Assembly (NCBI GenBank): GCA_903872035.1
Contig: CAIQIZ010000028.1
Span: 24,038 to 88,037 of the forward strand
Source: an uncultured bacterium
Lineage (GTDB): Bacteria; Patescibacteriota; Minisyncoccia; Phycocordibacterales; PALSA-1337
DNA length: 64,000 nt
Direction: 5' to 3'
Under the pieces are notes generated by a model, which did no database searches, had not been told where the DNA came from, and saw only the letters and a list, made by a program, of their open reading frames with translations. How positions within the stretch are numbered: the stretch's first letter is position 1; each line of letters opens with the position of its first letter. Positions 18,351 to 63,487 of this stretch are shown here, one piece after another. The position numbers were made by a program, and so were the translations under genes.

Positions 18351-18363
18351 TATGTATAAGCTC

Positions 18364-18419
18364 GTAACACTTTGCCAGTTTGAAACTGGCCCACAGTTAT
18401 CAAACTAGCAAAGTGTTAC
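18364..18419 (-). repeat. Family-1 palindromic extragenic element, copy A (subfamily with AACTGTGGGCCAGTTT apex)
   Basis: 12-bp perfect arms GTAACACTTTGC / GCAAAGTGTTAC around a loop containing CTGGCCCACAG. Confidence 0.6.
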
Positions 18420-18434
18420 TCGCTAAACTCATTC

Positions 18435-19199: not shown

Positions 19200-19219
19200 C
19201 ATATCAACCAGAAGACTCC

Positions 19220-19271
19220 GAAAATACTCCCGTTTGCCGCTGGCCCACAGCGCTCAAACAGGAGTATTTTC
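19220..19271 (-). repeat. Family-1 palindromic element, copy B
   Basis: 17-bp arms; the core, read on the minus strand, is GTTTGAGCGCTGTGGGCCAGCGGCAAAC, identical to copy F. Followed on the plus strand by TTTTCTTTG, so it may also terminate yidC. Confidence 0.7.
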
Positions 19272-19297
19272 TTTGTCTTCCAATCTTCGCTCAACTA

Positions 19298-23443: not shown

Positions 23444-23473
23444 TGCGTTTCAATTATAACAGAAAGCATCCCC

Positions 23474-25288
23474 TTACTGCCCTGCTGCCTCGAGATCCTT
23501 CTTGGCTTTCTCGATCTGCATGACTTGAGCTGGATTTGTGGTGATGATCTGATCCTCTGTATAGGAGGCGACGATCTTGATGGCTACGTGTTTCAAGCCG
23601 ACGAAGAACATGCCTTCCCCGACATCTGATTCGAGCAACAAGTATTTCTCTTCGTCTGTTAAGTTGAATGTTTGCTGGATGTGATCGATTACGGTTGGCG
23701 ATTGTTTGAGCAGGATCTGAATTGAAGAGTTGGTAAGAATCGGCAAACCATAGGGAGATTTCAAGAAGTCATCCACGTCTTGGGTTATTGTCGCCAAGCC
23801 AAGGTAATATTTACGGCCACGTTTTGCCAATCCGAATAGGAATGAGGCCGTATCTTCGGATTTCATCATCCACCAAGCCTCATCGATGACTAGGAGCCTC
23901 TTCTTCCTGATCTTGCGCACGGCATTCCATATGAAGTGGGTGACTATATACATGGCTACCGGCTTGAGCTCGTCTTCCATGTCGCGGAGAGAGAAGACAA
24001 CGAACTTCTTGTTGATGTCCACGTTTGAAGGTCTGTTGATGAAGCCGGACCAGGTTCCTTTGGTGTACTTGGTCAATCTTTGTACTAATGATTCACCACC
24101 TTCCATTCCAGCTAGGACGAGCTCGAAGTCAGACAAAAGAGGCGGTTCGACTGTGCGAAAGTCGGATTCTGGAGATATATCCTTGAGCGCATATGTTTCG
24201 GTGATGGCACGATCGATGATAGCGTCCTCTTCTTGGGACAGGCCGCCCAACATGATACGGAAGAGGCCGACCAAGTTGATGATGTTAGATCGTAATACGT
24301 CCGCTGCCGATTCATCTTCGGCTGGTATAGGTAGATCGAATGGGTTGATATGGTGCTCAGAATTCAGAGAGATGTTGAAATACTTCCCTCCTGTAGCTTC
24401 CGACATGTATTCATATTCTTTTTCCGGATCGATGACGATCACATCGGTATCGAACATCAAAGTCCGAAGAATCTCCAGCTTTGTGCAGTATGATTTACCG
24501 GCACCAGCCACGGCGAACGTCACAGAATTGTAGTTTTCAAGAAGGTATCGGTCGAAAAGGACCAGCGATGAATTGTGGCGATTTATTCCATAAAGTATTC
24601 CTTTATCTGAAGTGAGGTCGAAAGAGACGAACGGGAATAGCGACGAGAGTGGCGAGGAGTTCAGCTTGGAATGTACCGCCAATTGGTCGTCGGCTATAGG
24701 AATGACTGATTTGAAGCCTTGTTCTTGTTGGAAAAGGGCTGGTTTGACGTAAACAAGTTTCGATTCAAGAATGGACTTGATCTCTGATTCCAACTTGTCG
24801 AGATCGCCATCAGAATCGGCAAAGATCGTAATATATACGCCAACGTCGAAGAGATGTTCTTGCGCTTGCATCAATTGGTCACGGAGCGCTTCCAGGTCCT
24901 GATATGCAGTGTCTAGGCCAGGATCGCGGACCAAACCCTTCTCTTCTCTCCTGGATATCTGGCTTTGCACCTCGGCCACTTTCTTTTGGAAGTGTCGGAG
25001 AATCTTGGCTGTTTCGACTGGGTGGATGAAAATAGAGACATTGAAGACTTTATCTAGGTTGATGATAGGTGCGAACCAGCTTTCATCGAGGAAACGCGGG
25101 TAAGAAATGACAAATAGAGTGCGGCCGACCTTCTCGCCAAGATTCAATTCCTTCGGGCTAACTTTCAAGGCTGATGGTGCGATGACGTCCTTCAGCTCCA
25201 ATACGCCCGCTTGGTAGATCTCATTAGGAAGCACCGAAACGATGGGGGCTTCTGTTTTTTTGCCGAAGAGTTTGTTAAATATAGACAT
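23474..25288 (-). CDS. VirB4/TrbE/CagE-family type IV secretion ATPase
   Basis: 604 aa; Walker A VAGAGKS, Walker B VIDEAWWMM, overall VirB4 architecture. Confidence 0.8.
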   Translation of the reverse strand: MSIFNKLFGKKTEAPIVSVLPNEIYQAGVLELKDVIAPSALKVSPKELNLGEKVGRTLFVISYPRFLDESWFAPIINLDKVFNVSIFIHPVETAKILRHFQKKVAEVQSQISRREEKGLVRDPGLDTAYQDLEALRDQLMQAQEHLFDVGVYITIFADSDGDLDKLESEIKSILESKLVYVKPALFQQEQGFKSVIPIADDQLAVHSKLNSSPLSSLFPFVSFDLTSDKGILYGINRHNSSLVLFDRYLLENYNSVTFAVAGAGKSYCTKLEILRTLMFDTDVIVIDPEKEYEYMSEATGGKYFNISLNSEHHINPFDLPIPAEDESAADVLRSNIINLVGLFRIMLGGLSQEEDAIIDRAITETYALKDISPESDFRTVEPPLLSDFELVLAGMEGGESLVQRLTKYTKGTWSGFINRPSNVDINKKFVVFSLRDMEDELKPVAMYIVTHFIWNAVRKIRKKRLLVIDEAWWMMKSEDTASFLFGLAKRGRKYYLGLATITQDVDDFLKSPYGLPILTNSSIQILLKQSPTVIDHIQQTFNLTDEEKYLLLESDVGEGMFFVGLKHVAIKIVASYTEDQIITTNPAQVMQIEKAKKDLEAAGQ

Positions 25289-25292
25289 ATGT

Positions 25293-25985
25293 TTATGTGA
25301 TCTGGATAGGCTTCTCTGTTTCTCCCGGATTGAATAGCTTGTAATACAATTCGACCACTTCTTCTGTTCCCAATTCTGCAGCCCTGATGCCGCAGCGGAC
25401 CAAGCCTTGTTCGACTACCGATACCCTCTGCTCGAGTTGGCTACGGTATTCTTGGAATTGAGCATCGGCTGTTTCAGTTTGATTCTTTCCTTGATTTTTT
25501 CCTGGTAAGAATTTTGTCAGAGGATTGTTGCTGGCACTTATCATCGCCGGATCGTACGGAATGACCACAAAGAAGCTCTTGGACATGATATTGGTGCTTT
25601 CCACGAATGTCTTGATGAATTCGATATATTCGCGCACCTGGATCTTCATAAGCTCGGTTAACTGTTCCTTGTAGCGATCTTCCAGAAGAGCAATATACGG
25701 CCGTATGTCTAGCTTTTTTGACTGGATGAATATTTGGATGGAAAAATCTAGAGAGTTCACGAAATTCTGGAATTGCATGAGAATGGAACTCTGCTCATCC
25801 TGCGATTTCAAGGCAAAGTTGAGCGATGAAGCCAGGATGATGGAGCGCATGCCCCCATTTCTCAAGATGACCACGCCGTCGCGGATCTCCTGGATAGGCA
25901 CGAAGTTTTGGGTGGTTTGTGATTTGACGTTTTTTGCCATAGGAATTATCGCTGATTTACCGCTGATTCTTATTCGAATAGACAC
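25293..25985 (-). CDS. VirB4 N-terminal-domain-like protein, translationally coupled to VirB4
   Basis: Stop TAA, then ACAT, then the VirB4 ATG (4-nt gap). Core pattern PIQEIRDGVVILRNGG...FQNFVNSLDFSIQIFIQSKKLD resembles the non-ATPase N-domain of VirB4-family proteins. Confidence 0.4.
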   Translation of the reverse strand: MSIRIRISGKSAIIPMAKNVKSQTTQNFVPIQEIRDGVVILRNGGMRSIILASSLNFALKSQDEQSSILMQFQNFVNSLDFSIQIFIQSKKLDIRPYIALLEDRYKEQLTELMKIQVREYIEFIKTFVESTNIMSKSFFVVIPYDPAMISASNNPLTKFLPGKNQGKNQTETADAQFQEYRSQLEQRVSVVEQGLVRCGIRAAELGTEEVVELYYKLFNPGETEKPIQIT

Positions 25986-26391
25986 TCTCTTTGATATCCA
26001 AGCTCCAGGTCAGGTCTTTGAGCTTGCTGTCAGAGATCTTTGGAACCATGATAGAAGCGTAGCTCTTGACCTCATCGCCGGTCACTTCGGCTGATTTTTC
26101 TGGTATCTTCTCCTCTTTCTTCCATATATATAGCTTGTTCCCCCACCAATATTTGAATGCTGCCTCCATGACATTGACAAAGGGTTTGTTGTTGATTTTG
26201 TAGAAGGCTAAAGCAGCCGATAGCGCCATGATGGCGACGATGGGAATGAACGATAAGATGATGCTTTTCAAGAATACGTAGACTACGAAAGACAATCCTC
26301 CCCCGCCGACCAAGTATATGAATTGCTTCAAAGTGAGCGGTCCGAAGATCTTGTCTTCTACTTCGATGAATTGAGGTACTTGAAAACGCAT
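25957..26391 (-). CDS. PrgI/VirB3-like small T4SS membrane protein
   Basis: N-terminus MRFQVPQFIEVEDKIFGPLTLKQFIYL followed by two TM helices, matching the PrgI family pattern. Confidence 0.5.
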   Translation of the reverse strand: MRFQVPQFIEVEDKIFGPLTLKQFIYLVGGGGLSFVVYVFLKSIILSFIPIVAIMALSAALAFYKINNKPFVNVMEAAFKYWWGNKLYIWKKEEKIPEKSAEVTGDEVKSYASIMVPKISDSKLKDLTWSLDIKESVYSNKNQR

Positions 26392-26483
26392 TATGGCCTA
26401 ATTATAGCGTCAAGCGAGGATTTGTGGAAGCGAGCCTCCACAAAATACGAGCGGAGACGATATATGAGTGGAGCGAATATAGC
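26392..26483 (-). promoter_or_regulatory. Family-2 gene-upstream module: tandem-repeat box, hairpin, -10 TATAAT; promoter of the prgI-virB4 operon
   Basis: On the minus strand TATAAT lies 9 nt before the ATG at 26391. The conserved distal box is GCTATATTCGCTCCACTCATATATCGTCTCCGCTCG. The element fills the entire 92-nt intergenic gap. Confidence 0.5.
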
Positions 26484-27302
26484 TTAGCTGATCGATTCTT
26501 TGTATGGATCACCTGGTTTTGGATTGCTGACATCGATTTTCTTCGGAGTTTGTGGTGTTGGTGGTGGGACTGGCTTCGGTACGACAGGTTGTGGAGCGGC
26601 TGGAACTGGTGTGGTCGCATTTGGTATCGCTGCTATTGAAGGTTGGGAATCTTTTGGTACGGTAAGCGGAAGAGTGCCTTTTTGGTTAATCGGCGTTTGT
26701 GATTCTTCAATTTTCGGTGGATTTTCCAGGATGGACGGGCACGTTGTCGGGTCCTCTACGCCAGCCAATATCTTTGCTCTGTCTGCGACAGTAATCCCGC
26801 TACTGCTTTCCAATATGCTGCTCGGCCTATCGATGCTGAAATCGCCAGCTGTTTCTACAGATGACATGGTCGATTCAGCATGATCGTTTTCCAAAGGTTG
26901 CTCTAGAGCAGCGATGTCTTGCTGTCCAGTGTCGTTCGTTTGTTCGTCGATCGCTCGTGCAGCATCTTCAGATTTTTTAGATTTCTCCTCTATCTCTCGC
27001 ATCTGGGTCTTTATTGTCGAAAACACCTGACTATTTATATCAGTTGCGATCATTTGAGAAAGTTTTGCGTCGATGGATAGCCGATCAGAAAGGTCACTTA
27101 CAAATGTGGATGCTTTGGCGAAACCCAGTATCACTAGAACGACTTGATCGACAAGATCACCAACCTGATCGATCATCAGTTCATATTTTTTTCCAATGGC
27201 CTGGATCGTGTTCAGAACTTCTTGCGATGAAATTGCTTTCTGCAGTTCCTTCGGCAGTTTCTCGAATTGGGCCTGGATTTGTTCGGTGGTGTAGTCTTTC
27301 AT
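26484..27302 (-). CDS. Hypothetical protein with Pro-rich C-terminus
   Basis: 272 aa, within the T4SS-like block. Confidence 0.45.
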   Translation of the reverse strand: MKDYTTEQIQAQFEKLPKELQKAISSQEVLNTIQAIGKKYELMIDQVGDLVDQVVLVILGFAKASTFVSDLSDRLSIDAKLSQMIATDINSQVFSTIKTQMREIEEKSKKSEDAARAIDEQTNDTGQQDIAALEQPLENDHAESTMSSVETAGDFSIDRPSSILESSSGITVADRAKILAGVEDPTTCPSILENPPKIEESQTPINQKGTLPLTVPKDSQPSIAAIPNATTPVPAAPQPVVPKPVPPPTPQTPKKIDVSNPKPGDPYKESIS

Positions 27303-27313
27303 GTCATTGATTG

Positions 27314-29305
27314 TTATTTCTTTGGCGCATCTTTCGGTGTATCCTTGGGTGCTGCTGACGCTTCAGACTTCGTCTCTCTTGCAACAGCCTTCGCCATTCC
27401 GTCAATTCGTTCCTTCTCGGCCTCTTCTTCCCCAGCATCGATATCTTTTTGTAGTCGTACTTGTTCTTTCTCAAGACGCTCAACATCTGCTAATTCCTCA
27501 GGGCTAGCCGGAATTCCCGGTTTAAAACCAATAGGTTTCCCCTTTGCCACAATCTTAGCTTTGAGTTCTTTAAGTTCATCATCCACTCTCGTTTTCTCAC
27601 GTTTGTTAGCTGCCAGGTCTGACTTCGCTTTTTTATCTCGAACTACCTTGTCCAATTTTGCTGCTGTTTGCCGATTTGCTCTGTTATCGATAGCGAAACC
27701 TATTGCACCACCAAGGTATAGATTACCCGGGCTAGCCTTCCAAGGAAGACTTTCACGATATTTCGCCTGATATGCTTTGGCTTTATCCTTAGCTACTCCA
27801 AAGGCCTTATCTCCTTCGGGGCCTTGGGCGAAATCACCACGGTCGACTTTATCCAACCTATCATGCATTCCTTCCTCGGCTTTTTTCTTTGCTGCTAAGC
27901 GAGCTTCGTATCCACCCGCTTTACCCCCACCGAAGCCGCCTGTGCTGACCTTAGACAGACCAGAAGAAGCTAAACCGCCGATGCCGGGCAAACGGCTTGC
28001 CAGGAATTTCATCGGAGCGCTTTCGTTCGCTCTGTAAGCCGCACGTCCGAGAGTTCGAGCACCAGCCTGGCTTCCGACACCCTTCCAAATATTTGCCGCG
28101 CTGAACTTCTTCATGGTTTTATCCATCCATCCAGTCGCAGATCCGCCCATCTTGAGGCCGACGATGAGAGGAAGGTTGAGCATGACTATGACCATGGCAA
28201 AATTGATGGCTAACACCATATAACTGAAAGTCCAATTGGTACCGGCTGGCAAGCTTGAAATATTGGAACTAGCCGCGCCCATGATGTTGCTTTCGTTGAG
28301 GACTTTCAAGGCTGCATACATAAGCAAAAGATACACGGGCATAAAGACTAATTGGGCCTCTAGTTGTGTCTTGAATTCTTTCATTTTGTCTGCTATTTGC
28401 GGGATGATCATACCGGCAAACCATATAGGTGAGAAGGCCAACAGAAATAGCAGGATAACCAATCTTGCGATGAATGCCGCCGCAGCCAAGAGAAAGCTGA
28501 AAGCGGCTGTTATCATTATGACAATGCCGACTATACCGACGACGATGATTGTGAAGGAATCTCCAAGTTTAGTTCCGATCCCGTTAGTCTTGGTATTAAA
28601 ATTGGTTTGGATCTTCAGGCTGTTCATGAAGATTTGAGAGATGCCATTTCCCGCGCTGACATTTGAGGTGCTTTGGGTCATTCCGGTTGCTGTCGCCAAA
28701 TCGGCTACGGTCGTCTTATCAGTCATGGTGATAGATGTTGGTACCATGGAGTTGAAAATAGCCAAAGAGACGACATTTGAAGCATCGATGAGGACGCTGA
28801 CTATGAAGAAACTGAAGTTGATCAGTATACCAGCGGTGACGATGGAGACTATCACTTTGCCATAATTGTTTCCAAGACCAAGGATGATTTGGAAGGCCGC
28901 GTATAGAAGGAAAAATATGAAGAATATGCCGGTCACGTCGCGGATAGTCTGCCAAATGGCGTAAATGGCGGGTGTGGCACTGACGAAGTCTTTGATGTGC
29001 ATGGTTATAACTATGGAAACGTTCAATATACCTCCGGCGAATGTGAGCATTATGCCCATAGCGTCTAAAGCAGTATTAACAATGTTTGATAGTACAGTAT
29101 TTATGCATTTCGTCGGATGAAGGACGTCACTCACGCTACATCCAGTTTGGCCACCGCCCGAACCTGGGTCAGGAGTGCTTGTTGGTGATGGAGACGCAGT
29201 TACAGACGGCGTTGGAGTCTGTGCGTTTACAGGAACTGCAAACAAAGAAAACACCGTAAGGACGAGGAAGAGTATCGGGATGATTTGTTTGAAATGCGAT
29301 TTCAT
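27314..29305 (-). CDS. Polytopic membrane protein, possibly VirB6/TrbL-like, with a charged C-terminal tail
   Basis: Signal peptide, six or more TM helices, then a Lys/Glu-rich hydrophilic C-terminus. Confidence 0.4.
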   Translation of the reverse strand: MKSHFKQIIPILFLVLTVFSLFAVPVNAQTPTPSVTASPSPTSTPDPGSGGGQTGCSVSDVLHPTKCINTVLSNIVNTALDAMGIMLTFAGGILNVSIVITMHIKDFVSATPAIYAIWQTIRDVTGIFFIFFLLYAAFQIILGLGNNYGKVIVSIVTAGILINFSFFIVSVLIDASNVVSLAIFNSMVPTSITMTDKTTVADLATATGMTQSTSNVSAGNGISQIFMNSLKIQTNFNTKTNGIGTKLGDSFTIIVVGIVGIVIMITAAFSFLLAAAAFIARLVILLFLLAFSPIWFAGMIIPQIADKMKEFKTQLEAQLVFMPVYLLLMYAALKVLNESNIMGAASSNISSLPAGTNWTFSYMVLAINFAMVIVMLNLPLIVGLKMGGSATGWMDKTMKKFSAANIWKGVGSQAGARTLGRAAYRANESAPMKFLASRLPGIGGLASSGLSKVSTGGFGGGKAGGYEARLAAKKKAEEGMHDRLDKVDRGDFAQGPEGDKAFGVAKDKAKAYQAKYRESLPWKASPGNLYLGGAIGFAIDNRANRQTAAKLDKVVRDKKAKSDLAANKREKTRVDDELKELKAKIVAKGKPIGFKPGIPASPEELADVERLEKEQVRLQKDIDAGEEEAEKERIDGMAKAVARETKSEASAAPKDTPKDAPKK

Positions 29306-29311
29306 AGAATA

Positions 29312-31072
29312 TTATGGGGCGGCTGTCGGCGTGGCCGTTCCACTGGTGCAAAGGGCTTGGTATGGCGCCAGAGTCGTCTGAAGCGTGGTGGCTGTTTGGG
29401 TGGCGGTAGTGAGATATGTTTGGGCAACTTGCGGATCTAGAACAGCCGTAGTTGACTGGGCTATGAGGTTGTTCAAACTATTTTGTTGGTCGGTCAACTG
29501 TTGGGCTGTTGTGGCGCTTTGCATCTGTGACACAGCGCTTTGGATGGCTAGCAAGACAGATTGCGTGCTGTTATAAGCGCTTTGATATTGGTTGACTGCT
29601 GGAGTCACAGTGATGGAGATGACGTTATTCAAAGCAGTGAGGCTCGTTTGCAGACTTGCCGCTGCTCCGGAAGCGCTGGCTCGCGTCTGTAGACAGGCTG
29701 AAGCCGCTGCATAAGCAGTTTGTTGTTGTTTTATGAGTGTGAGTGCCGAATTCAAAGTCGTCACTGATTGTTGGACTGATGCGACCGCAGTATTGATCGG
29801 AGCAACGGTCTGCTGTTTGAGATTGGTGAAGTTTGTTTGAAGTGCTGGGTCGCTGTTTGCGTATTGGTTGATGAATGATTGGGATGCTGCGTTGCTTCCA
29901 GAGCTTGAATTGCTAGAAGTTGTTTTCGTCAAAGACAACAATCCACCACCATTAGAGAGGACCTGATTGAAGAGCTGATTTGTCAAAGCGGTGGCTATCT
30001 CGTTTATATCGTGGGTCATGTTCAAAGTATCGGTTTGGGCACCGAGCTGTTTGTTGAGTGCGGCGGAAATGACTGAACCTGGCGTCTCGACGTGGCAGAC
30101 TTTGGTGGTTGCGGTGCTTCCAGAAGATGTTTGAACGTTGTCGCATTTTTGCCATGACAAGAATCCATTTCCCCTGTTCAGGTCATTATTGATCGCGTTC
30201 TGTTTTTTCTGTATCTGCACATCCAGGTCGCTCTTTGCTTGTAGGGCAGCCCCGAAAGCATTGTTTTGTGGCTCGGACACTAGAGCCATGAAAGCTGGCC
30301 AGCCACCTTGACGGAAATCGCCTCCCATGAAGCCGTCGACGCTGGCACCATTAATGCTTATATCGTTAGGGTTGTTCAGGACATTTCCTGACATTATATC
30401 TCCTAGATTTGTGCCATTCGAACTTCCCTTAACTGAGACGGAAACATTGCCGCTTTGTTTGGCTGTCTGTATCACCTTGCTCAAGGTACATGTATATCGT
30501 TGATTTAAGGTCGATGTTTGTCCCAATGCTAGCGAGAGACGAAGGTCGATATTGAATGGAGAACAGAGTGATTTACCTAACGGACCGAGGTCGCTGATGA
30601 ATGCCCCGGTAACTTGGTCGGCGGCATCCATGAAGAAACCTTCAGGATTCTTTAAGAACGCCGGTTCTCCTTTGAAGCCGGTATTGATCCAAGTTACTAC
30701 GCTATTCGTAAGTTGGTGCAGTATCACCTGGGCAGCTTGCCAGGCCAGGCCTTTCCATGTGCAGACGTCATCCTTCACGGCCGTAGTATTTGATCTAACC
30801 GTTGCGTCGGAAACAGGCACCGCATTCCCACCAATGATGCTCCCTACGCTACCGCTTCCACCACTGCCGCCACCGATACCTACTGCGCTTCCTATGCCAC
30901 TTAAAATCGATCCCATGTTACAAGCGATCAGTCCCGCCCCCACTCCCCCGACCGCTCCTGCTATTTGTGCCTGTGCTGTTGCGGGAAGATATACTGCCGA
31001 GGTCATGAATAGAATCGAAGTAACGAATGCTAGGCAGATCCCATTTTTGATTATGTTGTTCTTGATTGTCAT
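29312..31072 (-). CDS. Secreted Gly-rich then Q/T/S-rich protein
   Basis: Signal peptide; low-complexity repeats. Confidence 0.45.
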   Translation of the reverse strand: MTIKNNIIKNGICLAFVTSILFMTSAVYLPATAQAQIAGAVGGVGAGLIACNMGSILSGIGSAVGIGGGSGGSGSVGSIIGGNAVPVSDATVRSNTTAVKDDVCTWKGLAWQAAQVILHQLTNSVVTWINTGFKGEPAFLKNPEGFFMDAADQVTGAFISDLGPLGKSLCSPFNIDLRLSLALGQTSTLNQRYTCTLSKVIQTAKQSGNVSVSVKGSSNGTNLGDIMSGNVLNNPNDISINGASVDGFMGGDFRQGGWPAFMALVSEPQNNAFGAALQAKSDLDVQIQKKQNAINNDLNRGNGFLSWQKCDNVQTSSGSTATTKVCHVETPGSVISAALNKQLGAQTDTLNMTHDINEIATALTNQLFNQVLSNGGGLLSLTKTTSSNSSSGSNAASQSFINQYANSDPALQTNFTNLKQQTVAPINTAVASVQQSVTTLNSALTLIKQQQTAYAAASACLQTRASASGAAASLQTSLTALNNVISITVTPAVNQYQSAYNSTQSVLLAIQSAVSQMQSATTAQQLTDQQNSLNNLIAQSTTAVLDPQVAQTYLTTATQTATTLQTTLAPYQALCTSGTATPTAAP

Positions 31073-31078
31073 AGTGAT

Positions 31079-31945
31079 TTATCGGACTAGCGCATTCAAA
31101 GCGTTCTGATTGATCATGAATGGAACCCCCTCGCCCTCCAGTACAGCGTTCATATCTTGTAGGCCGGTGATGATCTGTTGGGCCCCGGTCACGTGCATAG
31201 ACATACCGGATAGGCCGCTTACGGAGTCAGTGTCAAAGCCGCGAAAATCTACAGCTGCGGATTTCATCGTGCTCAGGGCGTTCACAAGTTCTAGATATTG
31301 GGATGAAATGATCTCGGGTGTAGGGATAGCAAGAAGTGAAGAGATCATCCTCTTGTATGCAGCGATGATCGGGTCGATATTTTTGAGTACGGATGGATCA
31401 TTCTTGGAAATATATGATTGGACGATTGAAGATTGGCTAGTTCTTATATTATATGAATCGAGGACCGTGGTGACTGCCTGGCTGAAGGTTAGTAGCGTAT
31501 TTTTATCGTTTGCGGCGATCGTATGCAAATCACCGACAACATATAATTTTGTTGGATTTGTATTGATATGCTCAGCCGCAATATTTGCTGTCGTTTGGTC
31601 TATAGCGTCCTGATCATTCACCAAATCTGCTTGTTTCAGTCCGATATAGCTGGTAAAGAAATCTCTCGCTAAGTTATCAGTTGCTGTAAGCTTCTCTTTT
31701 GTGATGGCGGAATCGCTGTTCGGAGGTGTCTTAACTGTCCCCTCGAACTGTTTCTTCCAGTCACCATTGTCGGTGCTAGTATTTGGTTGCAAATCTGTCA
31801 CCACAGCAGCCGAGTTGTTGTTGCCAGCGCCATTTATTTGGCCAGCGTTTGCGTTTAACGAGGCGTAATGGGTTGTTCCCCAGACGGCCAAAACGCAAAC
31901 CACGAATATTATTACCGTCTGCTTACGCGGGTAGAAAATCGCCAT
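31079..31945 (-). CDS. N-terminally membrane-anchored hypothetical protein; first gene of the minus-strand block
   Basis: Single N-terminal TM helix. Tandem TATACT TATACT directly before the ATG. Confidence 0.45.
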   Translation of the reverse strand: MAIFYPRKQTVIIFVVCVLAVWGTTHYASLNANAGQINGAGNNNSAAVVTDLQPNTSTDNGDWKKQFEGTVKTPPNSDSAITKEKLTATDNLARDFFTSYIGLKQADLVNDQDAIDQTTANIAAEHINTNPTKLYVVGDLHTIAANDKNTLLTFSQAVTTVLDSYNIRTSQSSIVQSYISKNDPSVLKNIDPIIAAYKRMISSLLAIPTPEIISSQYLELVNALSTMKSAAVDFRGFDTDSVSGLSGMSMHVTGAQQIITGLQDMNAVLEGEGVPFMINQNALNALVR

Positions 31946-36594: not shown

Positions 36595-36698
36595 GGAGGT
36601 ATCTTACAGGAAGAATGATGAATGAGGAATGATCGGCGGTGCAGTAAAAGTTCCTACTACGTCGTTTGGCTCTAGGAGATTATGTTTTAGAAGGCGAA

Positions 36699-36750
36699 GG
36701 AAATCTTTTTGTTTGAGCGCTGGGGGCCAGCGGCAAACAGAAAGATTTCC
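36699..36750 (+). repeat. Family-1 palindromic element, copy C
   Basis: GGAAATCTTTTTGTTTGAGCGCTGGGGGCCAGCGGCAAACAGAAAGATTTCC. Flanks (GAAGGCGAAGG on the 5' side, CGGAGTCTTC on the 3' side) are shared with copies F and B. Confidence 0.7.
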
Positions 36751-36975
36751 GGAGTCTTCGACAATACTTTATTTGACAGTTCGTCAATAAAGGTTATTAA
36801 AAGTAAGGTGTGCATATCTCTCGTTGACAATAAATCCTTGCCTGATAACCTAGAGAGATATCCTACAATAAGTAAGTAAAAAAATGGCCACACAGAGCCA
36901 TTTATTGTATAGGAATAAACACACTGGACGTATGGATGGCAGATCTGGCTGACTTGCGGAAAGAAAAAATTTATT

Positions 36976-38121: not shown

Positions 38122-39663
38122 TCAATTAATCTTTTGTCTATATTGTAGAGTTTCTAGGACATGTTCTTTTTCTATGGACAGGTTTCCTCCAAGATCGGCG
38201 ATCGTTCTGGCGACTTTGATGACTCGGTGGAATCCCCTGCCGGAAAGTCCGAGATTTTTTGCTGAGGCAGTGAGGAGTGATCGGGCATCGTCACTCAGCA
38301 TAATGCATTTCTCTATATCAGAGGCGTCCATTTCACTGTTGTATTGTTTGCGAATTCCGTGTTCAGTAAAACGTTTTTGCTGCGTATCTCTGGCCGCTAT
38401 GACGCGGGCTCTGACGGTTTCCGAATCTTCCGCGTCAGATGTCGGTGCGGCTAGCTTCTCATATTCGATCTTGTGGATATTGAGCCAAATATCCAGCCTG
38501 TCTATGATCGGCCCTGACATCTTGCGTCGATAGTTTTCCAGGGCTTTGGTCGTGCAGGTACATCCTTGGTCCCGACCCTTACCACAAGGGCATGGATTCA
38601 TAGAAGCGATGAGGATGCATTGGGCTGGAAATGTCACGGTGCCGCGGGCGCGGGATATCGTGATATGCCTATCTTCAAGCGGTTGACGCAAGGCTTCGAT
38701 AACCGCCCGATCGAATTCCGGAAATTCATCCATGAAAAGAACGCCGCGATGCGCCAAAGATATCTCGCCGGGCTTGGGTATATTGCCTCCGCCGACTATC
38801 GAAGGATATGAAGCTGTGTGATGAGGCGAACGGAATGGAGGTTCGGTTACCATGAAATCCCCCAGGATGTGAGCAGCGGAATGGACACTGGTAACTTCGA
38901 TCGATTGTTCATAAGAAAGCGGCGGAAGGATCGAGGAAAAGCTTTGGGCTAGCATGGTCTTACCTGTCCCTGGAGGTCCATACATGAGGATGTTGTGGGC
39001 GCCGGCAGCAGCGATCTCTAGCCCACGTTTACTAGATTTGTTACCTCGAATGGCGCGCATGTCCATGATGTAGACCCCCTTTTTCGGCATAGCGGACGGC
39101 AGCCGTGGAGTGAGCGGGATAACTCCTGCCCTGCCCATAAGATGGTCGATCGTCTCCCCAAGTGACGAGACGGGGAATATGGTCAATCCTTGGGCGAGCG
39201 ACGCCTCCTCTTGGTTTTCTTTAGGAATATACACTTGAGTAAATCCTTGCGCAGTCGCCTGACAAAGGATCGGCAATAAGCCGGCGACTCGTCGCACTTT
39301 TCCCTCCAAGGATAGTTCGCCTATAAAGAGCTTATGTTCGGTCTCAAGTTCAATATCTCCGGCTGCAGCTAGATACGCGAGTGCCATAGCTAGATCAAAC
39401 GACGGGCCTTCTTTGCGCAAGTCAGCTGGTGCCAGTGAGATAACCACCTTTTGGTTCTTTTGTTTTGGTGAAACGAATCCCGTGTTTTTGATAGCGGCGG
39501 CGATACGGTCCTTTGATTCTTCAATAGAACGATCCCCCAAACCGACCACGGAAAAGGAGTGAAGTCCATTTGAGATATCTACTTCAACGGTAATGATTTC
39601 CGATGTCAGGCCGATGAGTTCAGCGCAGTATGATTTTGCTAGGCTCATACTCGCATCATACAA
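38122..39663 (-). CDS. YifB/ComM family Mg-chelatase-like AAA+ ATPase
   Basis: 513 aa; Walker A GPPGTGKT, Lon-like N-domain, C4 zinc motif. Confidence 0.85.
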   Translation of the reverse strand: MYDASMSLAKSYCAELIGLTSEIITVEVDISNGLHSFSVVGLGDRSIEESKDRIAAAIKNTGFVSPKQKNQKVVISLAPADLRKEGPSFDLAMALAYLAAAGDIELETEHKLFIGELSLEGKVRRVAGLLPILCQATAQGFTQVYIPKENQEEASLAQGLTIFPVSSLGETIDHLMGRAGVIPLTPRLPSAMPKKGVYIMDMRAIRGNKSSKRGLEIAAAGAHNILMYGPPGTGKTMLAQSFSSILPPLSYEQSIEVTSVHSAAHILGDFMVTEPPFRSPHHTASYPSIVGGGNIPKPGEISLAHRGVLFMDEFPEFDRAVIEALRQPLEDRHITISRARGTVTFPAQCILIASMNPCPCGKGRDQGCTCTTKALENYRRKMSGPIIDRLDIWLNIHKIEYEKLAAPTSDAEDSETVRARVIAARDTQQKRFTEHGIRKQYNSEMDASDIEKCIMLSDDARSLLTASAKNLGLSGRGFHRVIKVARTIADLGGNLSIEKEHVLETLQYRQKIN

Positions 39664-39736
39664 GATGGAGATGAAGAAACTGTGAAGAAACCCTCAAAAA
39701 ATGATAAAAAGAGGTTCAAGAAACAATGAAGATTAT

Positions 39737-39807
39737 GGGGCAACGTAAATATGTACTGTTCCATAACTGTGGGCCAGTTTGAAACAGTACATATTTACGT
39801 TGCCCCA
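39737..39807 (+). repeat. Family-1 element, copy D: 24-bp perfect hairpin with AACTGTGGGCCAGTTTGAA apex
   Basis: GGGGCAACGTAAATATGTACTGTT at 39737-39760 pairs perfectly with AACAGTACATATTTACGTTGCCCC at 39784-39807. Confidence 0.7.
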
Positions 39808-39821: not shown

Positions 39822-40202
39822 TTATTTTGTCACAGAAGAATCGTGTCTGTGTTTGATGGAAATACGAGATGAAGGGTTTGCTTCGAGGCGTTCCCTCTCA
39901 ATCGGTTTACCGCAGGTTTCGCAGATGCCGTAGGTTCCATTTTTGATACGTTCTAGAGCGGCGACGACTTCGGTACGTTGTCCTTCAAGTTGAGTTAATA
40001 TGCCGCTATTACCCTCATATTCTTCGAGTTTGTCGGCTACCTCATTTTCGTCTGCGGGATCCACCTCGATATCGGCGGTAGTGACCTGCCAATCATTGGG
40101 ATTACCAGGGTTTTTTTGGCCAACGCCAGAGAGCTCCTGCTCCAAGCGGACCTTTTCGGCCGAAAGTTTTTGTTCGAAATACTCGATGTCTTTCTTGTTC
40201 AT
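39822..40202 (-). CDS. DksA/TraR-family C4 zinc-finger protein
   Basis: C-terminal CETCGKPI...R motif plus a coiled-coil N-terminus. Confidence 0.6.
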   Translation of the reverse strand: MNKKDIEYFEQKLSAEKVRLEQELSGVGQKNPGNPNDWQVTTADIEVDPADENEVADKLEEYEGNSGILTQLEGQRTEVVAALERIKNGTYGICETCGKPIERERLEANPSSRISIKHRHDSSVTK

Positions 40203-45126: not shown

Positions 45127-46074
45127 TTGCCTAGGTCTTACAATACATGTATGTCGCACAATATACACGAGCTCAAACAGCAATTTTTGGAGTATTTGGA
45201 GATTGAAAAGGGTCGGTCGCTGAAGACTGTGATCAATTATGATCATTATTTGACGAGATTCTTGCAGTACGCCAAGCTCAAAAAGACGGAGGACATTACT
45301 GCTGACGTGGTCCGTGAATACCGTCTGTGGCTTAACCGCCAATTGACGGGTCGTAGCAGGACGAATAAGGGCGAAACTCTGAAGAAGAAGACACAGAACT
45401 TCCACTTGATCGCTTTGCGGGCATTTCTGAAGTTTTTGGCTAAAAGAGACATCCCTACTCTTTCACCAGAGCGAATCGAACTGGCGAAAGTTGGTGAAAG
45501 AGGCCTTGATCTAATTACTCCTGAAGAATTACGCCGGTTACTGGATGCGCCTAAGGGTAATGACTTAAAATCGTTGAGAGATAAGGCTATTTTGGAATGT
45601 CTATTCTCCACAGGCCTTCGCGTTTCCGAGCTCTGTTCCCTTCCAAGCGACATTAATTTGAATCGAGATGAGCTGTCAGTCAGAGGAAAGGGAGAGAAGA
45701 TCCGGGTAGTCTTTCTTTCGCCAGATGCCAAAGCTGCAATTAAGAGATATTTGGATAAACGCACTGATATGGACGATGCTCTATTCGTCAGATTAAATCG
45801 TGAGGAGGCCAAGAATGGTGATTTGGCTATGGACAAGCGGTCTGTCGAAAGAACCGTGAAGTATTGGGCTATAAAAACGGGAATATCAAAGAAAGTCACT
45901 CCACACGTTATTCGCCACTGCTTTGCAACGGACTTGCTATCAAATGGTGCCGATTTACGTTCAGTTCAAATGCTTCTTGGTCACGCAAACATCAATACTA
46001 CTCAGATTTACACCCATATTACAGACAGCCAGTTGCAGAAGGTGCATAAACAGTTTCATAATCGAAAAAACTAG
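45127..46074 (+). CDS. Tyrosine site-specific recombinase XerC/XerD family
   Basis: C-terminal R...HxxR...Y motif (VIRHCFATDLL...NTTQIYTH). The start may instead be MSHNIHEL at 45151. Confidence 0.8.
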   Translation: MPRSYNTCMSHNIHELKQQFLEYLEIEKGRSLKTVINYDHYLTRFLQYAKLKKTEDITADVVREYRLWLNRQLTGRSRTNKGETLKKKTQNFHLIALRAFLKFLAKRDIPTLSPERIELAKVGERGLDLITPEELRRLLDAPKGNDLKSLRDKAILECLFSTGLRVSELCSLPSDINLNRDELSVRGKGEKIRVVFLSPDAKAAIKRYLDKRTDMDDALFVRLNREEAKNGDLAMDKRSVERTVKYWAIKTGISKKVTPHVIRHCFATDLLSNGADLRSVQMLLGHANINTTQIYTHITDSQLQKVHKQFHNRKN

Positions 46075-46107: not shown

Positions 46108-46902
46108 ATGCGAATCATCTCCTGGAATGTGAACGGTATCAGATCTGTAGTAAAAAAAGGCTTATTTACTCCGTTTATTGAAAAATATCAGCCGGATATT
46201 TTGTGCTTGCAGGAAACCAAAGCCGAACAAGGTCAAGCAGTCATCGATCTAAGCGGATACGAGGAATACTGGAATTCGGCCAAGAAGAAGGGTTATTCTG
46301 GAACAGCAATTTTCACGAAATTAAAACCGATCGCTGTTTTTAATGATCTACCGGAGAATATTTGCACAAAATTTGGCTTGAAGGAGGACAAGTTTGGCGA
46401 TTCCAGGACCGAAGGCCGTGTGATCGCCGCCGAATTCGACAGATTCTTCGTTGTTACGGTTTATACGCCAAACGCAAAGGATGATCTTGGCAGGATTTCC
46501 CTACGTCACAAGCAATGGGACCCCGCATTCTTGGCCTATTGTAAAGAACTCGAATCAAAGAAGCCGGTTATTTTTTGTGGTGACTTGAATGTGGCGCACA
46601 CTCCAGATGATCTGGCGCGGCCGAAGGAAAATGAGGGATTGAAAGGCTTCACCAAAGAAGAACGAGAAGGGTTCCAGAATTTCATCGACGCCGGATTCAT
46701 CGATACATTCAGGATGTTCAATAAAGGCAATGGTTTTTACACATGGTGGTCTCATTGGTCCAATGCCCGAGCCCGAAATATTGGTTGGAGGATAGATTAC
46801 ATGATGGTCTCAAATACGTTGAAGAACAAGGTTGAATCAGCGGCTATTCACAGCGAGGTTTTGGGATCCGACCACTGCCCTATTGAAGTTGTTATCAAGT
46901 GA
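46108..46902 (+). CDS. xthA: Exodeoxyribonuclease III
   Basis: MRIISWNVNGIRS N-terminus; EEP-fold catalytic motifs. Confidence 0.85.
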   Translation: MRIISWNVNGIRSVVKKGLFTPFIEKYQPDILCLQETKAEQGQAVIDLSGYEEYWNSAKKKGYSGTAIFTKLKPIAVFNDLPENICTKFGLKEDKFGDSRTEGRVIAAEFDRFFVVTVYTPNAKDDLGRISLRHKQWDPAFLAYCKELESKKPVIFCGDLNVAHTPDDLARPKENEGLKGFTKEEREGFQNFIDAGFIDTFRMFNKGNGFYTWWSHWSNARARNIGWRIDYMMVSNTLKNKVESAAIHSEVLGSDHCPIEVVIK

Positions 46903-46910
46903 ATACGGAT

Positions 46911-46958
46911 CATCTTACTCATTTGGGCGCTGTGGGCCAGCGACAAATGAGTAAGATG
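46911..46958 (+). repeat. Family-1 palindromic element, copy E
   Basis: 15-bp perfect arms CATCTTACTCATTTG / CAAATGAGTAAGATG around GGCGCTGTGGGCCAGCGA; begins 9 nt after the xthA stop. Confidence 0.65.
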
Positions 46959-47467
46959 TGAGTATTCACTGTAGAGTTTCATGTAAAAGTAAAATCGCCA
47001 GAGGCGAGTTCAGATAGAATCCCGCATGGCGATTTTTGAAACACGCGGAATCTAAAGAACTCTTGGGTCTGTTGACCCCTCAGACCCTAAATGTTTGGAT
47101 CTGATTTCATCCACACCATTCCTGATAATTAGACGCACAGACTAATTATTGTAGTAGGTGATAGTGTGCTCTGTCTTTTTTTTTAGGTGCTCTCTCGTTC
47201 GAGGAGCTATAATTTTTTGAGACAAGATGCACTATCATCCTTAGCAACGGAAGGATGATATTTTAAATTGATTCCGCAAGCTTCGTGACACTGAGTAGTG
47301 TGAAGCCTACCTGACCATATATGAATGAACTGTAGTTTATCTTGTCCGACTTTCTGTCGAACACCTCGGTGACAAACTGGTCTGCGACTATTGTATGTCT
47401 TATAAAGGACAATGTAAAGGTCATAACTGTGGATAACTCGAGAATAAGTATGTCCTATATAAATAAT

Positions 47468-48970
47468 CTATGAGACATAGTGTTTTGCCCTTATTTCTCC
47501 TAGCTCTTTTTGCTCTTCTTGTTCTTTCTTCTCCTTCCCTTTCTCTGCTATTTTTCTCAATTCAGCTTCCGGGAGAGCTAAAAATTCCTTAGTTCTTTGC
47601 ACTAAATAATCTTCTGTATTTAATTTCGGATCATCCAAAACTTCCTCCATTAACGCATTCAATATCACGCCTATCTTTGGACCCGGACTCATCTTACCAA
47701 CCTCCATAATTTTCTGTCCATCGATCTTCAGCATTTTTACCGATACTGGATCTCTAAGTGCTTCTTCAATCATAGATTTGTATTTCCTTAGTCGGTAAGG
47801 ATTTTCCTTAGGTCTGCCGGTTCCTATGCGGTCGCAAGCACGGAGGTTCATTAGGTCCCATATATTCTCTTTACCGACGTTTACGATCATTCTTCGGACG
47901 GCAGAAAGGCTAATTGTAGCCGTATCAGCGAAAAACATGTGCCAACGCACCAGTTTCGTCACTTTTTCTATTGTTCCACGTGAAAACTTGAGTTTTTCAA
48001 GGATTTTATGTGTTTCACGTGAACCAACTACTTCGTGGCCGTAGAACGTTGGTTGCTTTGTTTCGTGTGAAAACCCCTTCGTATTTGGCTTACCAACGTC
48101 ATGAAATAGGGCTGCTAGACGCATTTCAAGGCTAAAATCTTTGTCAGCAGCGTGCTGAACGGTTCTGAGGAGGTGTTCCCAGACGTCGAAAGCATGAGCA
48201 GATGGCTGCTTAACTCCCATACCAAGTTCTAATTCAGGGATAATGTATTGAAGTAGACCTGTACCGTGAAGCATTTCCAGGCCAGTTTTGGGGTTTGGCG
48301 ATAAAAGGATCTTTGTAAACTCATCACGAACTCGTTCTGCCGAGACGTCCTTTATGTGAGAATTAAGGCTCTGTATAGCCGTTAGAGTATCCTGATTACA
48401 CGTGAAACGTAGTTCAACAGCCAAACGAACGGCACGCATCATACGAAGTGCGTCCTCGTTAAAGCGGTCAGCTGGGTTCCCTACGGTTCTAATGATTTTG
48501 TCCTTTATATCCTGAAAGCCGCCAAATAGGTCGGTGATGTCCTTGATAGCTCCCTTAGACAAATTGACCGCAATGGCATTTATCGTAAAATCCCGCCTTT
48601 TCAGGTCATCTTCTAGAGATTTGCTGAATTTGACTTGATCTGGATGGCGTCGGTCAGAATAGCCTGATTCCAAGCGATAAGGGGTCACTTCTACGGCTTT
48701 GAGGGTCTCACCTTCAGTTTGCTCGTTTATGACTGCTACAGTGCCAAATTTGTTCTCGTAGACGGTTTTAGGAAAAAGTGACTGTATTTGCTCCGGCGTG
48801 GCATTTGTTGTTATGTCCCAGTCTCGAGGCTCCCTCCCTAGGAAGATGTCACGTACACAGCCACCAACTAGGTACGCTTCAAAACCACCCTTTTCCAGGG
48901 CTTCGACAATGTTGACAATTTCAGCAGGTATTACACTATTTTCGGCTTTTTTCACCTTATAATTGTACAA
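47468..48970 (-). CDS. cca: CCA-adding tRNA nucleotidyltransferase with HD domain
   Basis: N-terminal GGCVRD motif and HD phosphohydrolase domain. Confidence 0.85.
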   Translation of the reverse strand: MYNYKVKKAENSVIPAEIVNIVEALEKGGFEAYLVGGCVRDIFLGREPRDWDITTNATPEQIQSLFPKTVYENKFGTVAVINEQTEGETLKAVEVTPYRLESGYSDRRHPDQVKFSKSLEDDLKRRDFTINAIAVNLSKGAIKDITDLFGGFQDIKDKIIRTVGNPADRFNEDALRMMRAVRLAVELRFTCNQDTLTAIQSLNSHIKDVSAERVRDEFTKILLSPNPKTGLEMLHGTGLLQYIIPELELGMGVKQPSAHAFDVWEHLLRTVQHAADKDFSLEMRLAALFHDVGKPNTKGFSHETKQPTFYGHEVVGSRETHKILEKLKFSRGTIEKVTKLVRWHMFFADTATISLSAVRRMIVNVGKENIWDLMNLRACDRIGTGRPKENPYRLRKYKSMIEEALRDPVSVKMLKIDGQKIMEVGKMSPGPKIGVILNALMEEVLDDPKLNTEDYLVQRTKEFLALPEAELRKIAEKGKEKKEQEEQKELGEIRAKHYVS

Positions 48971-54436: not shown

Positions 54437-54637
54437 TCATTGGCAGGGCGTATGCTATTTAGCCGAACCCACTTCAAATTACTGCGTATATTATAGCACA
54501 GTCAGTGCTTAATAGTCAAGCAAAATGGCAAAAAAGGCCTCATTACAAGGCCAATTTGCGAATCTTACGAGGTTTAACCTAAAACATTGTTAGTAGGTTA
54601 AACCTAAATCTGCTGTTTTAGGTCTGACCTATGTAGC

Positions 54638-56373: not shown

Positions 56374-56503
56374 CAAGTTTCGTGAGAACATGTCACTTCT
56401 CGAGACACGGAGAAATTCTGCAGAATTTCTCCTAGTCCTCGACGATTTCTTGCTAGAAATCATCTGCGGAGTCTCTCGAAATGACATGTTCGCACGAAAC
56501 TTG
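56374..56503. promoter_or_regulatory. Large multi-hairpin structured element upstream of rny
   Basis: An imperfect outer stem of about 33 bp (56374-56406 with 56471-56503) encloses a perfect 24-nt palindrome GGAGAAATTCTGCAGAATTTCTCC at 56409-56432 and the hairpin GATTTCT-TGCT-AGAAATC. Confidence 0.35.
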
Positions 56504-63320: not shown

Positions 63321-63415
63321 TTTTTGAGCATAAGCTAATAATTCTTGAGCATATTTTACCATGTTTCTGGCAAGTGGGTAATTATGAAAGCTTCGTAGGT
63401 TGATTGAAGGCGAAA

Positions 63416-63465
63416 GAAATCCTGCTGTTTGAGCGCTGTGGGCCAGCGGCAAACGGCAGGATTTC
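63416..63465 (+). repeat. Family-1 palindromic element, copy F
   Basis: GAAATCCTGCTGTTTGAGCGCTGTGGGCCAGCGGCAAACGGCAGGATTTC; 5' flank GAAGGCGAAAG as in copy C. Confidence 0.7.
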
Positions 63466-63487
63466 TAGAGCCTTTAGTAAGTTTTGA

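Follow-up and report, generated by a model that had tools for sequence, protein, structure and literature searches.

The window analysed here is a stretch of 64,000 nt, to whose positions all coordinates refer. Within the 173-nt spacer between its dksA/yteA-like gene and yifB (38122-39648, - strand) lies a long hairpin, designated copy D, and the question is whether this is an ordinary signal at the end of a gene, a local duplication or one member of a dispersed element. The window is a piece of bacterial chromosome around dnaA (16340-17806), dnaN, rnpA and yidC with about 45% G+C, and the best named homologues of its YifB come from Candidatus Paceibacterota / Patescibacteria MAGs. Repeats and mobile DNA are usually said to be scarce in the very small genomes of Patescibacteria (CPR). 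Several freshwater metagenomes contain the same strain, and copy D was identical in all five contigs read. In the following, the strand of a hairpin is the strand that reads the TGGGC loop, L-numbers denote loci on related metagenome contigs or strains, and P-numbers denote proteins of relatives.

Copy D begins 14 nt past the stop codon of the dksA/yteA-like gene (Table 1). It had been described in a first-pass annotation as a 24-bp perfect inverted repeat around a loop, and this was confirmed, with arms at 39737-39760 and 39783-39806 enclosing an apex of 22 nt. The apex is composed of a C·A mismatch, CA/TG pairs, a bulged T, a 5-bp stem AACTG/CAGTT and the pentaloop TGGGC, and the pairing as a whole reaches 28 nt at 96% with one mismatch (39736-39763 with 39780-39807). 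Folded as single-stranded DNA, the element gave -32.1 kcal/mol on the + strand and -35.3 kcal/mol on the - strand (z = -10.9 and -14.6), and as RNA -49.8 and -56.0 kcal/mol; none of 200 shuffles was as stable. The arm sequence is absent elsewhere in the window, the partner arm excepted, and D was therefore not duplicated from neighbouring sequence. A simple local inverted duplication, which had been named beforehand as the alternative to an element-borne hairpin, was ruled out on this ground. An intrinsic (Rho-independent) terminator was likewise rejected, as no terminator-like sites were found between 39400 and 40300 and no T-run follows D on either strand.

Table 1. Coordinates, strand and supporting data of copy D, its surroundings, the other hairpins in the window and the copies within genes of related contigs
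Feature	Position	Strand	Evidence or remark
Copy D, whole hairpin element	39736..39807	+	covariance model 73.6 bits; folding
Copy D, left arm, 24 nt, GGGGCAACGTAAATATGTACTGTT	39737..39760	+	perfect complement of 39783-39806
Copy D, apex, 22 nt, CCATAACTGTGGGCCAGTTTGA	39761..39782	+	read from sequence, folding
Copy D, right arm, exact reverse complement of left	39783..39806	+	read from sequence
dksA/yteA-like zinc-finger gene	39822..40202	-	3' end occupied by copy D
Promoter-like module upstream of yifB, abutting D	39649..39735	-	host sequence, outside element
Copy A, AACTG/CAGTT apex subfamily, between rnpA and yidC	18356..18427	-	73.2 bits
Master-type copy, between convergent yidC and ORF 19298-20629	19210..19281	-	82.6 bits
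Master-type copy, loop GGGGC, between uvrD/rep and LysM-M23 peptidase gene	36689..36760	+	75.3 bits
Copy with 15-bp perfect inner arms, 9 nt past Exo_endo_phos stop	46898..46970	+	62.8 bits
Master-type copy, 14 nt past Na+-pyrophosphatase stop	63405..63476	+	78.9 bits
In-gene copies, smc, two (L021)		sense	in frame
In-gene copy, tsaD (L017)		sense	in frame
In-gene copy, dihydroorotate dehydrogenase, DHODH (L029)		sense	in frame
In-gene copy, TraG/VirD4-like gene (L019)		sense	in frame
In-gene copy, rsmH (L025)		opposite	in frame
In-gene copy, SAM-dependent methyltransferase (L019)		opposite	in frame
Second palindrome AGGTYWRACCT	3907-3942		in frame in tsaE
Second palindrome AGGTYWRACCT	54570-54630		just past rny

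The search for the apex that had been proposed with the first description of D found six hairpins of one family in the window and further members on related metagenome contigs. A total of 20 distinct copies is now known, 14 of them from these contigs and from the flank of the window's own contig. For the core CTGKGGGCCAG, 0.97 occurrences would be expected in the window and six were counted, a number reached in none of 100 shuffles; all six form the tips of long hairpins. With a covariance model of 17 distinct copies, the six window copies scored 63-83 bits and the next window match only 15.9 bits, from which it follows that the window holds no decayed copies. The model also added three copies in related loci, one of them with the apical stem CGCCG/CGGCG. 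When metagenome contigs were scanned, true members were found in L017/L018, L019, L021/L025, L024 and L029, together with chance matches within unrelated genes. Left of the window, at a distance of about 6.5 kb, the same genome has a seventh copy. This genome thus carries seven copies per 79 kb, or roughly one per 10 kb, all of them intergenic without exception, and five of the six window copies begin 9-18 nt downstream of a stop codon.

The TGGGC hairpin family, found in tiny-genome Paceibacteria (CPR bacteria), is previously undescribed; no literature on palindromic elements in Patescibacteria or Parcubacteria was found. In a search of Rfam, only tRNAs reached the gathering threshold, and D gave sub-threshold matches to generic hairpin models, at most 35 bits against cutoffs of at least 62. 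Phage and plasmid records contained no match to the family and a scan of viral contigs returned nothing. A collection of genome contigs, in which the source genome is apparently not included, gave four chance-level matches to TTTGRNNNCTGKGGGCCAGNNNCAAA in unrelated phyla, and a protein search with the in-frame peptide ..LSAVGQRQ.. gave 25 word-sharing candidates, none with E <= 10. TIGR systems consist of stem-loop arrays with box C/D motifs near a Tas gene (PMC12045711). An assignment of the family to these or to CRISPR repeats was rejected, the copies being dispersed singletons with no arrays, box C/D motifs, cas or tas genes.

Common to all copies are a 5-bp apical stem, the TGGGC pentaloop (GGGGC in the copy at 36689) and a 2x1 internal loop. 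From the outside inwards, the rod-like hairpin consists of an outer stem, a purine-rich 3x3 internal loop in many copies, a middle stem of free sequence, the base GTTTG/CAAAC, the 2x1 internal loop with AG opposite G, the apical stem and the pentaloop; the commonest form of the apex is GTTTG-AG-CGCTG-TGGGC-CAGCG-G-CAAAC. The structural alignment of 17 distinct copies is ungapped, with 72 columns and 32 pairs, and includes a modelled outer helix of 27 bp. In this alignment 88.2% of the cells are paired as against 38-43% when the partner is slid by 1-3 columns, double-sided changes amount to 162 cells as against 30-46 in the slid controls, and the covariation score is 0.77 as against 0.12-0.17; the observed values were reached in none of 500 shuffles. 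The apical stem itself occurs in the compensatory variants CGCTG/CAGCG, AACTG/CAGTT and CGCCG/CGGCG. This is a multi-copy family in which pairing has been kept through massive covariation. Sequence constraint peaks at the apex, mean pairwise column identity being 0.82 there, 0.60 in the GTTTG/CAAAC base, 0.41-0.48 in the inner arms and 0.33-0.34 in the outer arms, compared with 0.27 in the flanks.

This gradient bears on how D and copy A are related. It had been noticed from the start that A carries the same apex subfamily, and AACTGTGGGCCAGTT is indeed identical in both, occurring exactly twice in the window, in D (+) and in A at 18384-18398 (-). The arms, described as unrelated, do differ (37% identity), but they retain a residual family homology that decays outward from the apex. 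Likewise, a conserved apex within paired arms of differing sequence does recur, in six window copies and 20 copies in total, but the arms cannot be called arbitrary, since similarity fades only gradually, from 0.82 at the apex to 0.33 as against 0.27 in the flanks. The notion of D and A as a related pair was correct as to the common apex but too narrow, both belonging to a larger family whose main apex is GCGCTG-TGGGC-CAGCG and of which AACTG/CAGTT is a double compensatory variant. Within this family, D and A are diverged singletons. The master cluster is made up of the copies at 36689, 63405 and 19210, the L035 copy and L029 13305-13376, and its arms are 61-87% identical at non-orthologous loci in at least two genomes, L029 being a separate metagenome contig. 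In L017 and L019 the copies have the inner arms in common but not the outer ones, and in the copy at L024 543-632 the pentaloop is split by a nested mini-hairpin of 20 nt.

The two strands of the element are not equivalent. Among the non-Watson-Crick cells read on the TGGGC strand, G·T outnumbers A·C by 22 to 5 (binomial p = 0.0015) and A·G outnumbers C·T by 40 to 3, a bias which indicates that the TGGGC strand is the one that folds. This strand has been kept foldable, and in most copies it folds markedly better than its complement (for example, -49.6 vs -38.6 kcal/mol at 63405). D is an exception because its single mismatch is a C·A on that strand. The flanking mRNAs do not account for this asymmetry, the TGGGC strand being antisense to the neighbouring genes at A, D and 63405 but sense at 46898.

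In relatives with 71-80% identity in YifB the gene order is preserved, and the element is absent from the orthologous sites: no copy was found in these syntenic relatives at the sites of D, 36689 and 46898, nor elsewhere in their loci. The site of 36689 is empty in L010 and L013. At the site of D, L010 carries a small hairpin, TGAAGAT-16 nt-ATCTTCA, and L015 a stem of 14-18 bp, and D itself is flanked by remnants of both halves of the L010-type hairpin. Near-perfect hairpins of 14-25 bp without the family apex occur in the relatives at the same kinds of positions. Long near-perfect hairpins at gene 3' ends are therefore normal in this clade, contrary to the earlier view that stems of such length are unusual for terminators, and what is special here is the common apex. 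The promoter-like module that abuts D also precedes yifB in relatives without the hairpin, and it recurs upstream of dprA (L024) and of a RAYT-like gene (L025).

A comparison of D with L024 1694-1765 illustrates how differently apex and arms behave. Both belong to the AACTG subfamily and are identical in 20 of 20 apex bases (AACTGTGGGCCAGTTTGAAA). Arm identity, by contrast, is only about 58%, although neither stem contains a mismatch (24/24 and 25/25 bp). The same promoter-like module adjoins each of them, with identity in all 23 adjacent bases. As this module recurs before different genes, the orthology of the two copies is uncertain; either the arms turn over fast and symmetrically in place, or the two are independent insertions beside the same module. 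Another copy of that locus, L024 1521-1592, was considered as the orthologue of copy A and dropped, since L024 lacks rnpA and yidC.

Copies of the family lie not only after stop codons but also in frame within conserved housekeeping genes. Seven such copies were found in genes of related contigs, five in sense and two in antisense orientation (Table 1). Compared with insertion-free orthologues, TsaD and RsmH gain about 22 residues (about 66 nt), which corresponds to both arms plus the apex. The segment inserted in TsaD includes the peptide SDLSAVGQRQSG. In the DHODH copy, the base reads GTTTC/GGAAC instead of the usual GTTTG/CAAAC, by which an in-frame TGA is removed and pairing is kept. The TsaD insertion of L017 is also present in P0122 (TsaD 77% identical), with D for R in the left arm and I for T in the right; as judged from the protein only, these changes are consistent with a compensatory replacement of CGT/ACG by GAT/ATC. 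Other Paceibacteria have insertions of many different lengths in the same loop of TsaD, or in several cases no insertion, and the TsaD P0125 has a similar outer insertion which lacks the apex and no longer folds. The tsaD genes of L031 and L033 (96.8% identical) provide the one clean case of presence and absence: where one has ATCA, the other has a 94-nt hairpin with another apex and is 90 nt (30 codons) longer. This indicates that in-frame palindromic insertion is ongoing in this group.

Three analogies had been drawn for the hairpin, namely REP elements, IS200/IS605 ends and integron attC sites. The closest of these is REP/REPIN-RAYT, in that both systems consist of short multi-copy imperfect palindromes which are mostly extragenic at gene 3' ends and have strand-specific hairpin features, and in that a RAYT-like gene occurs in a genome carrying the TGGGC family. 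The analogy fails at the GTAG/CTAC foot, which the family lacks; foot and flank columns have identities of 0.27-0.33 and no GTAG is present in the alignment. Conservation is concentrated in the loop and apical stem, as opposed to stem and foot in REPs. At about 72 nt, the element is longer than classical REPs and occurs as single hairpins instead of REPIN doublets, and seven copies, in related genomes, lie inside ORFs. Moreover, the RAYT-like gene is flanked by another palindrome, and no RAYT is encoded in the 79 kb of the window genome. The other two analogies were discarded. Like attC sites and IS200/IS605 ends, the family would consist of single-strand hairpins of the kind that are recognised through their structure and owe their strand selectivity to unpaired bases. 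However, in attC the outer core sites (R''/L''-L'/R') are conserved and the centre is variable, which is the opposite of what is seen here, and attC sites form cassette arrays next to intI, whereas the TGGGC copies are dispersed with no intI or array. In IS200/IS605, pairs of LE and RE hairpins bracket tnpA/tnpB; the TGGGC copies are solitary, with no tnpA/tnpB between paired ends, and none of the window copies has a Y1 or TnpB ORF beside it. A Xer-like gene at 45127-46074, the only tyrosine recombinase, is also present in relatives without the element.

Palindromic elements of Rickettsia (RPE) were reportedly described by Ogata et al. in 2000, and to our knowledge the behaviour of coding palindromes has so far been known mainly from that genus. 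RPEs, which are discussed in PMC6649704 and PMC10969869, resemble the TGGGC family as palindromic repeats of a reduced-genome bacterium that are found both between genes and in frame inside conserved protein genes. In both cases a hydrophilic peptide is added to a variable loop of the host protein, and compensatory change keeps the pairing. In-frame copies with the ORF preserved, as in RPEs, thus occur in the family, copy D itself being intergenic. RPEs belong to another phylum, in view of which homology is not expected, and measure about 100-150 nt as compared with about 66-72 nt here, and the TGGGC family differs further in its strongly conserved apex, its variable arms and its several copies with perfect arms. 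RPEs have been reported to lose repeat identity with time (PMC6649704). In the coding palindromes of Nematomorpha mitochondria, perfect inverted repeats are likewise tolerated in coding sequence, and the identity of their arms is seemingly actively maintained, for which conversion by template switching has been proposed (PMC6649704). These have neither a conserved apex motif nor a dispersed family with a common core, and both of their arms encode conserved protein regions, whereas the TGGGC hairpin is an extra insertion.

A candidate enzyme was found in L025, which holds four family copies. Searches by tblastn with approximate IS608 TnpA and E. coli RAYT queries gave only matches with E > 1; the weakest of these leads, L025 5287-5583, was then backed by Pfam and NCBIfam. 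It falls in a RAYT-like ORF of 200 aa at 5155-5757, 850 nt from the rsmH copy, which matches Pfam Y1_Tnp with 31.4 bits (E = 2.3e-7). Its best NCBIfam match is the REP-associated tyrosine transposase (REP_Tyr_transpos) with 38.4 bits, below the curated cutoff of 80, and the motifs YHVYNRG, LMPNHIHIV, WQGSY and YVHLNP are intact. An HUH single-strand transposase is thus available in at least one carrier genome, and on the basis of sequence the RAYT-like protein is a candidate enzyme for the TGGGC hairpin. The gene is flanked by the palindrome AGGTYWRACCT, in units 25 nt apart, and not by the TGGGC hairpin. This second palindrome family also occurs in the window (Table 1) and, within the sequence examined, only in genomes that carry TGGGC hairpins as well.

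It is judged probable, with considerable reserve, that copy D is a diverged member of a family of selfish, strand-specific and non-autonomous palindromic elements of about 72 nt in a Candidatus Paceibacterota lineage, similar to REP and RPE. Such an element would spread as the single-stranded hairpin of the TGGGC strand, with the apex and internal loops recognised by an enzyme acting in trans, for which a RAYT-type Y1/HUH transposase is the most plausible candidate, and with arms that would need only to pair. Perfect arms, such as the 24 bp of D, may be kept or restored by symmetric conversion, that is, by template switching within quasi-palindromes; perfect arms without intermediates point in this direction. 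Template switching of quasi-palindromes is an established mechanism and has been invoked for coding palindromes elsewhere (PMC6649704). Insertions would survive only at tolerated places, either at gene 3' ends or, if in frame and free of stops, in surface loops. Since D sits where relatives carry an ordinary 3'-end hairpin, it has perhaps been co-opted and probably now doubles as the 3'-end hairpin of the dksA-like gene. Several observations count against a selfish element. The 79 kb available of the window genome (the window and two extensions) contain no transposase gene, and given the flanks of the RAYT-like gene its cognate repeat may be the AGGTYWRACCT family. The target-site pattern that had been suggested for inspection did not emerge, neither a target-site duplication nor a foot motif of the GTAG/CTAC type being definable around the copies. 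Near-identical genomes were not seen to differ in the presence of any TGGGC copy, the hairpin that distinguishes L031 from L033 having another apex. Neither the conservation of the apex in situ nor a window free of decayed copies would be expected of a purely selfish copy that cannot move.

According to the main rival, the hairpins are signals with a host function, whose apex binds a cellular protein and which look mobile only through signal turnover. Their role, in RNA or in DNA, might be that of a factor-dependent terminator, a stabiliser or processing site of mRNA 3' ends or a chromosome-organising site. The spacing of five of the six window copies from a stop codon, the hairpin that relatives too carry at the position of D, the apex that stays unchanged as the arms diverge (D vs L024 1694-1765) and the window free of decayed copies would all fit a signal, as would internal loops that are purine-rich on one strand, like protein-binding RNA motifs. 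Three things weaken this rival: copies are oriented both ways, some lie within genes, and syntenic relatives have none. Relative to the flanking mRNA, the folding strand is antisense at A, D and 63405 but sense at 46898, and among the in-gene copies five are sense and two antisense. Strong hairpins that terminated transcription or triggered cleavage would do damage in smc, tsaD and rsmH. There is also no U-tract, and the apex is missing altogether from relatives that have the same genes in the same order. A host signal is considered unlikely. That D reflects chance, a local inverted duplication or an ordinary intrinsic terminator, with no family behind it, has next to no probability: its place at a gene 3' end, where long hairpins are common in the clade, would suit such an origin, but its arm sequence is found nowhere else nearby, its apex is common to 19 other copies, and the score of 73.6 bits, the fold z of -11 to -15 and the missing T-run after the hairpin all speak against it.

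A further possibility is that only the apex, of about 28-40 nt, is mobile and inserts into the tips of hairpins already in place, whether terminators or palindromes inserted earlier. In D, A and 46898 the arms would then be older host hairpins, and the structure would grow in layers from the inside. Several features can be read in this way, namely the outward decay of similarity, the likeness of L017 and L019 in inner but not outer arms, the split pentaloop of L024 543-632, the position of D between the halves of a small hairpin (TGAAGAT/ATCTTCA) that is intact in L010, the apex-less outer insertion in the TsaD P0125 and the long apex-less hairpins of relatives. Arm homology nevertheless exceeds background along the whole length (0.33-0.48 vs 0.27), master-type copies have arms as well as apex in common across loci and genomes, and the in-gene insertions comprise the whole hairpin of about 66 nt when set against insertion-free orthologues. 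The insertion in P0125 no longer folds, which leaves the order of states ambiguous. Insertion of the apex alone was accordingly regarded as distinctly unlikely. It is conceivable, though not what we would expect, that the family is a new class of strand-specific hairpin element in CPR, in which the apex and purine-rich loops are read by a dedicated protein and the stem is actively re-symmetrised, and which colonises gene 3' ends and the surface loops of essential proteins, either by a novel HUH-independent mobility or as a domesticated genome-wide signal. If so, the in-situ conservation of the apex and the missing decayed copies would reflect function.

One Paceibacteria lineage thus combines a hairpin repeat family, a second palindrome family with a RAYT-like gene and repeated in-frame palindromic insertions in essential genes (tsaD, smc, rsmH, tsaE). 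If the selfish, REP/RPE-like reading is confirmed, it could account for some of the many lineage-specific insertions in CPR proteins, warn annotators that hairpins may extend or split ORF calls, supply strain markers and offer a tractable pair of substrate and enzyme for the study of single-strand hairpin transposition in uncultured bacteria.

Two minor observations concern the placement of individual copies. The idea that the element always lies on the lagging-strand template fitted all six window copies, which are on the locally G-rich strand around the cumulative-skew minimum near 19.5 kb, but the seventh copy is opposite, so that six of seven in the window genome follow the skew; in other loci, skew is confounded by gene strand. 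The copy at 63405-63476 is identical in strain L037, and in the window it is swallowed by a gene called at 61884-63452.

A second palindromic repeat family, distinct from the TGGGC hairpins, was recognized by the 11-mer AGGTYWRACCT, whose units are spaced at 25 nt; the window has five matches, where 0.08 would be expected. In tsaE a cluster sits in frame and adds about 12 residues, and another lies 8 nt past the rny stop codon. The same palindromes bracket the RAYT-like gene of contig L025, and this family is therefore considered the better candidate for the cognate REP of the RAYT-like enzyme. L025, a Paceibacteria contig which also has four TGGGC hairpins, carries this gene with mraZ-rsmH on one side and the gene for a class II aminoacyl-tRNA synthetase on the other.

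Repeat copies and associated features in the window and in related metagenome contigs (L handles)
Feature	Location	Strand	Remarks
AGGTYWRACCT copies	Window 3907-3942; 54570-54630; L017 2082-2190; L025 5029-5064; 5776-5786
RAYT-like Y1/HUH transposase gene	L025 5155-5757	+	200 aa, motifs intact
Promoter-like module, ~90 nt	Window 39649-39735	-
Promoter-like module, other loci	L010 9395-9500; L024 1600-1690; L025 5066-5150
TGGGC hairpin family member, split pentaloop	L024 543-632
tsaD hairpin insertion	L031 10652-10745		Comparison with L033
33-nt inverted repeat	Window 56374-56503		88% complementary, arms 64 nt apart
Noncoding stretch, ~500 nt	Window 46971-47467		Between Exo_endo_phos and CCA-adding enzyme genes
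Inverted repeat TTGGTTCACGTGAAA ... TTTCACGTG.AACAA	Window 47971-48027; L010 1037-1093; L015 1516-1572

The RAYT-like gene, yifB and dprA are each preceded by a recurring promoter-like module with the sequence AATCTTCATTGTTTCTTGA..TTTTTATC..TTCTTCATCTCCATC.TGTATGAT, which occurs as a tandem duplicate in L010, a syntenic relative of the window. Only some 6 nt separate the end of its TATGAT from the ATG, which suggests that the mRNAs are leaderless or have a very short leader.

In the family member on contig L024, a nested mini-hairpin, CCTGCCTGCCGGTAGGCAGG, splits the TGGGC pentaloop between TG and GGC, suggesting that the hairpin tips themselves are sites of insertion or expansion. Palindromic sequence was also found within tsaD, where the genes of contigs L031 and L033 are 96.8% identical and differ by a 94-nt hairpin with an apex unlike that of the TGGGC family. 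The hairpin stands in place of ATCA, with a net gain of 30 codons in L031, and the difference is a palindromic insertion, recent and in frame. Across Paceibacteria, insertions of many lengths occur in this TsaD loop, which follows GGHTELV. Gene annotation can be affected as well: the 522-aa protein of the window (61884-63452), a longest-ORF or gene call, starts within the TGGGC hairpin copy at 63405-63476, and the same protein was called at 478 aa in another strain (L037). Hence, TGGGC hairpins can distort the annotation of start codons.

The 33-nt inverted repeat upstream of rny encloses a central palindrome, GGAGAAATTCTGCAGAATTTCTCC; it scored 15.9 bits with the covariance model R1 of the TGGGC family, to which it is unrelated. 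The inverted repeat shared by the window, L010 and L015 lies within the CCA-adding enzyme gene and is kept in all three lineages. The noncoding stretch, which includes a DnaA-box-like sequence, TTATCCACA, is conserved in two relatives, L010 and L015. Rfam returned nothing for it at E ≤ 0.1, and it holds neither a tRNA nor a tmRNA; it may represent a structured RNA not described before or a region connected with replication.

Cumulative GC skew reaches its minimum near 19.5 kb, within the spacer between the convergent yidC and ORF 19298 that houses the TGGGC copy at 19210-19281; the minimum lies about 1.7 kb from dnaA and outside the dnaA-dnaN and dnaA-rnpA spacers. A TraG P-loop ATPase and a T4SS-pilin-like protein are encoded in the long series of minus-strand ORFs at 19298-31945, most of which have no Pfam match; the series is a cluster of the type IV secretion or conjugation-like kind and adjoins the origin region. 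L015 has a similar cluster, placed after the syntenic block.
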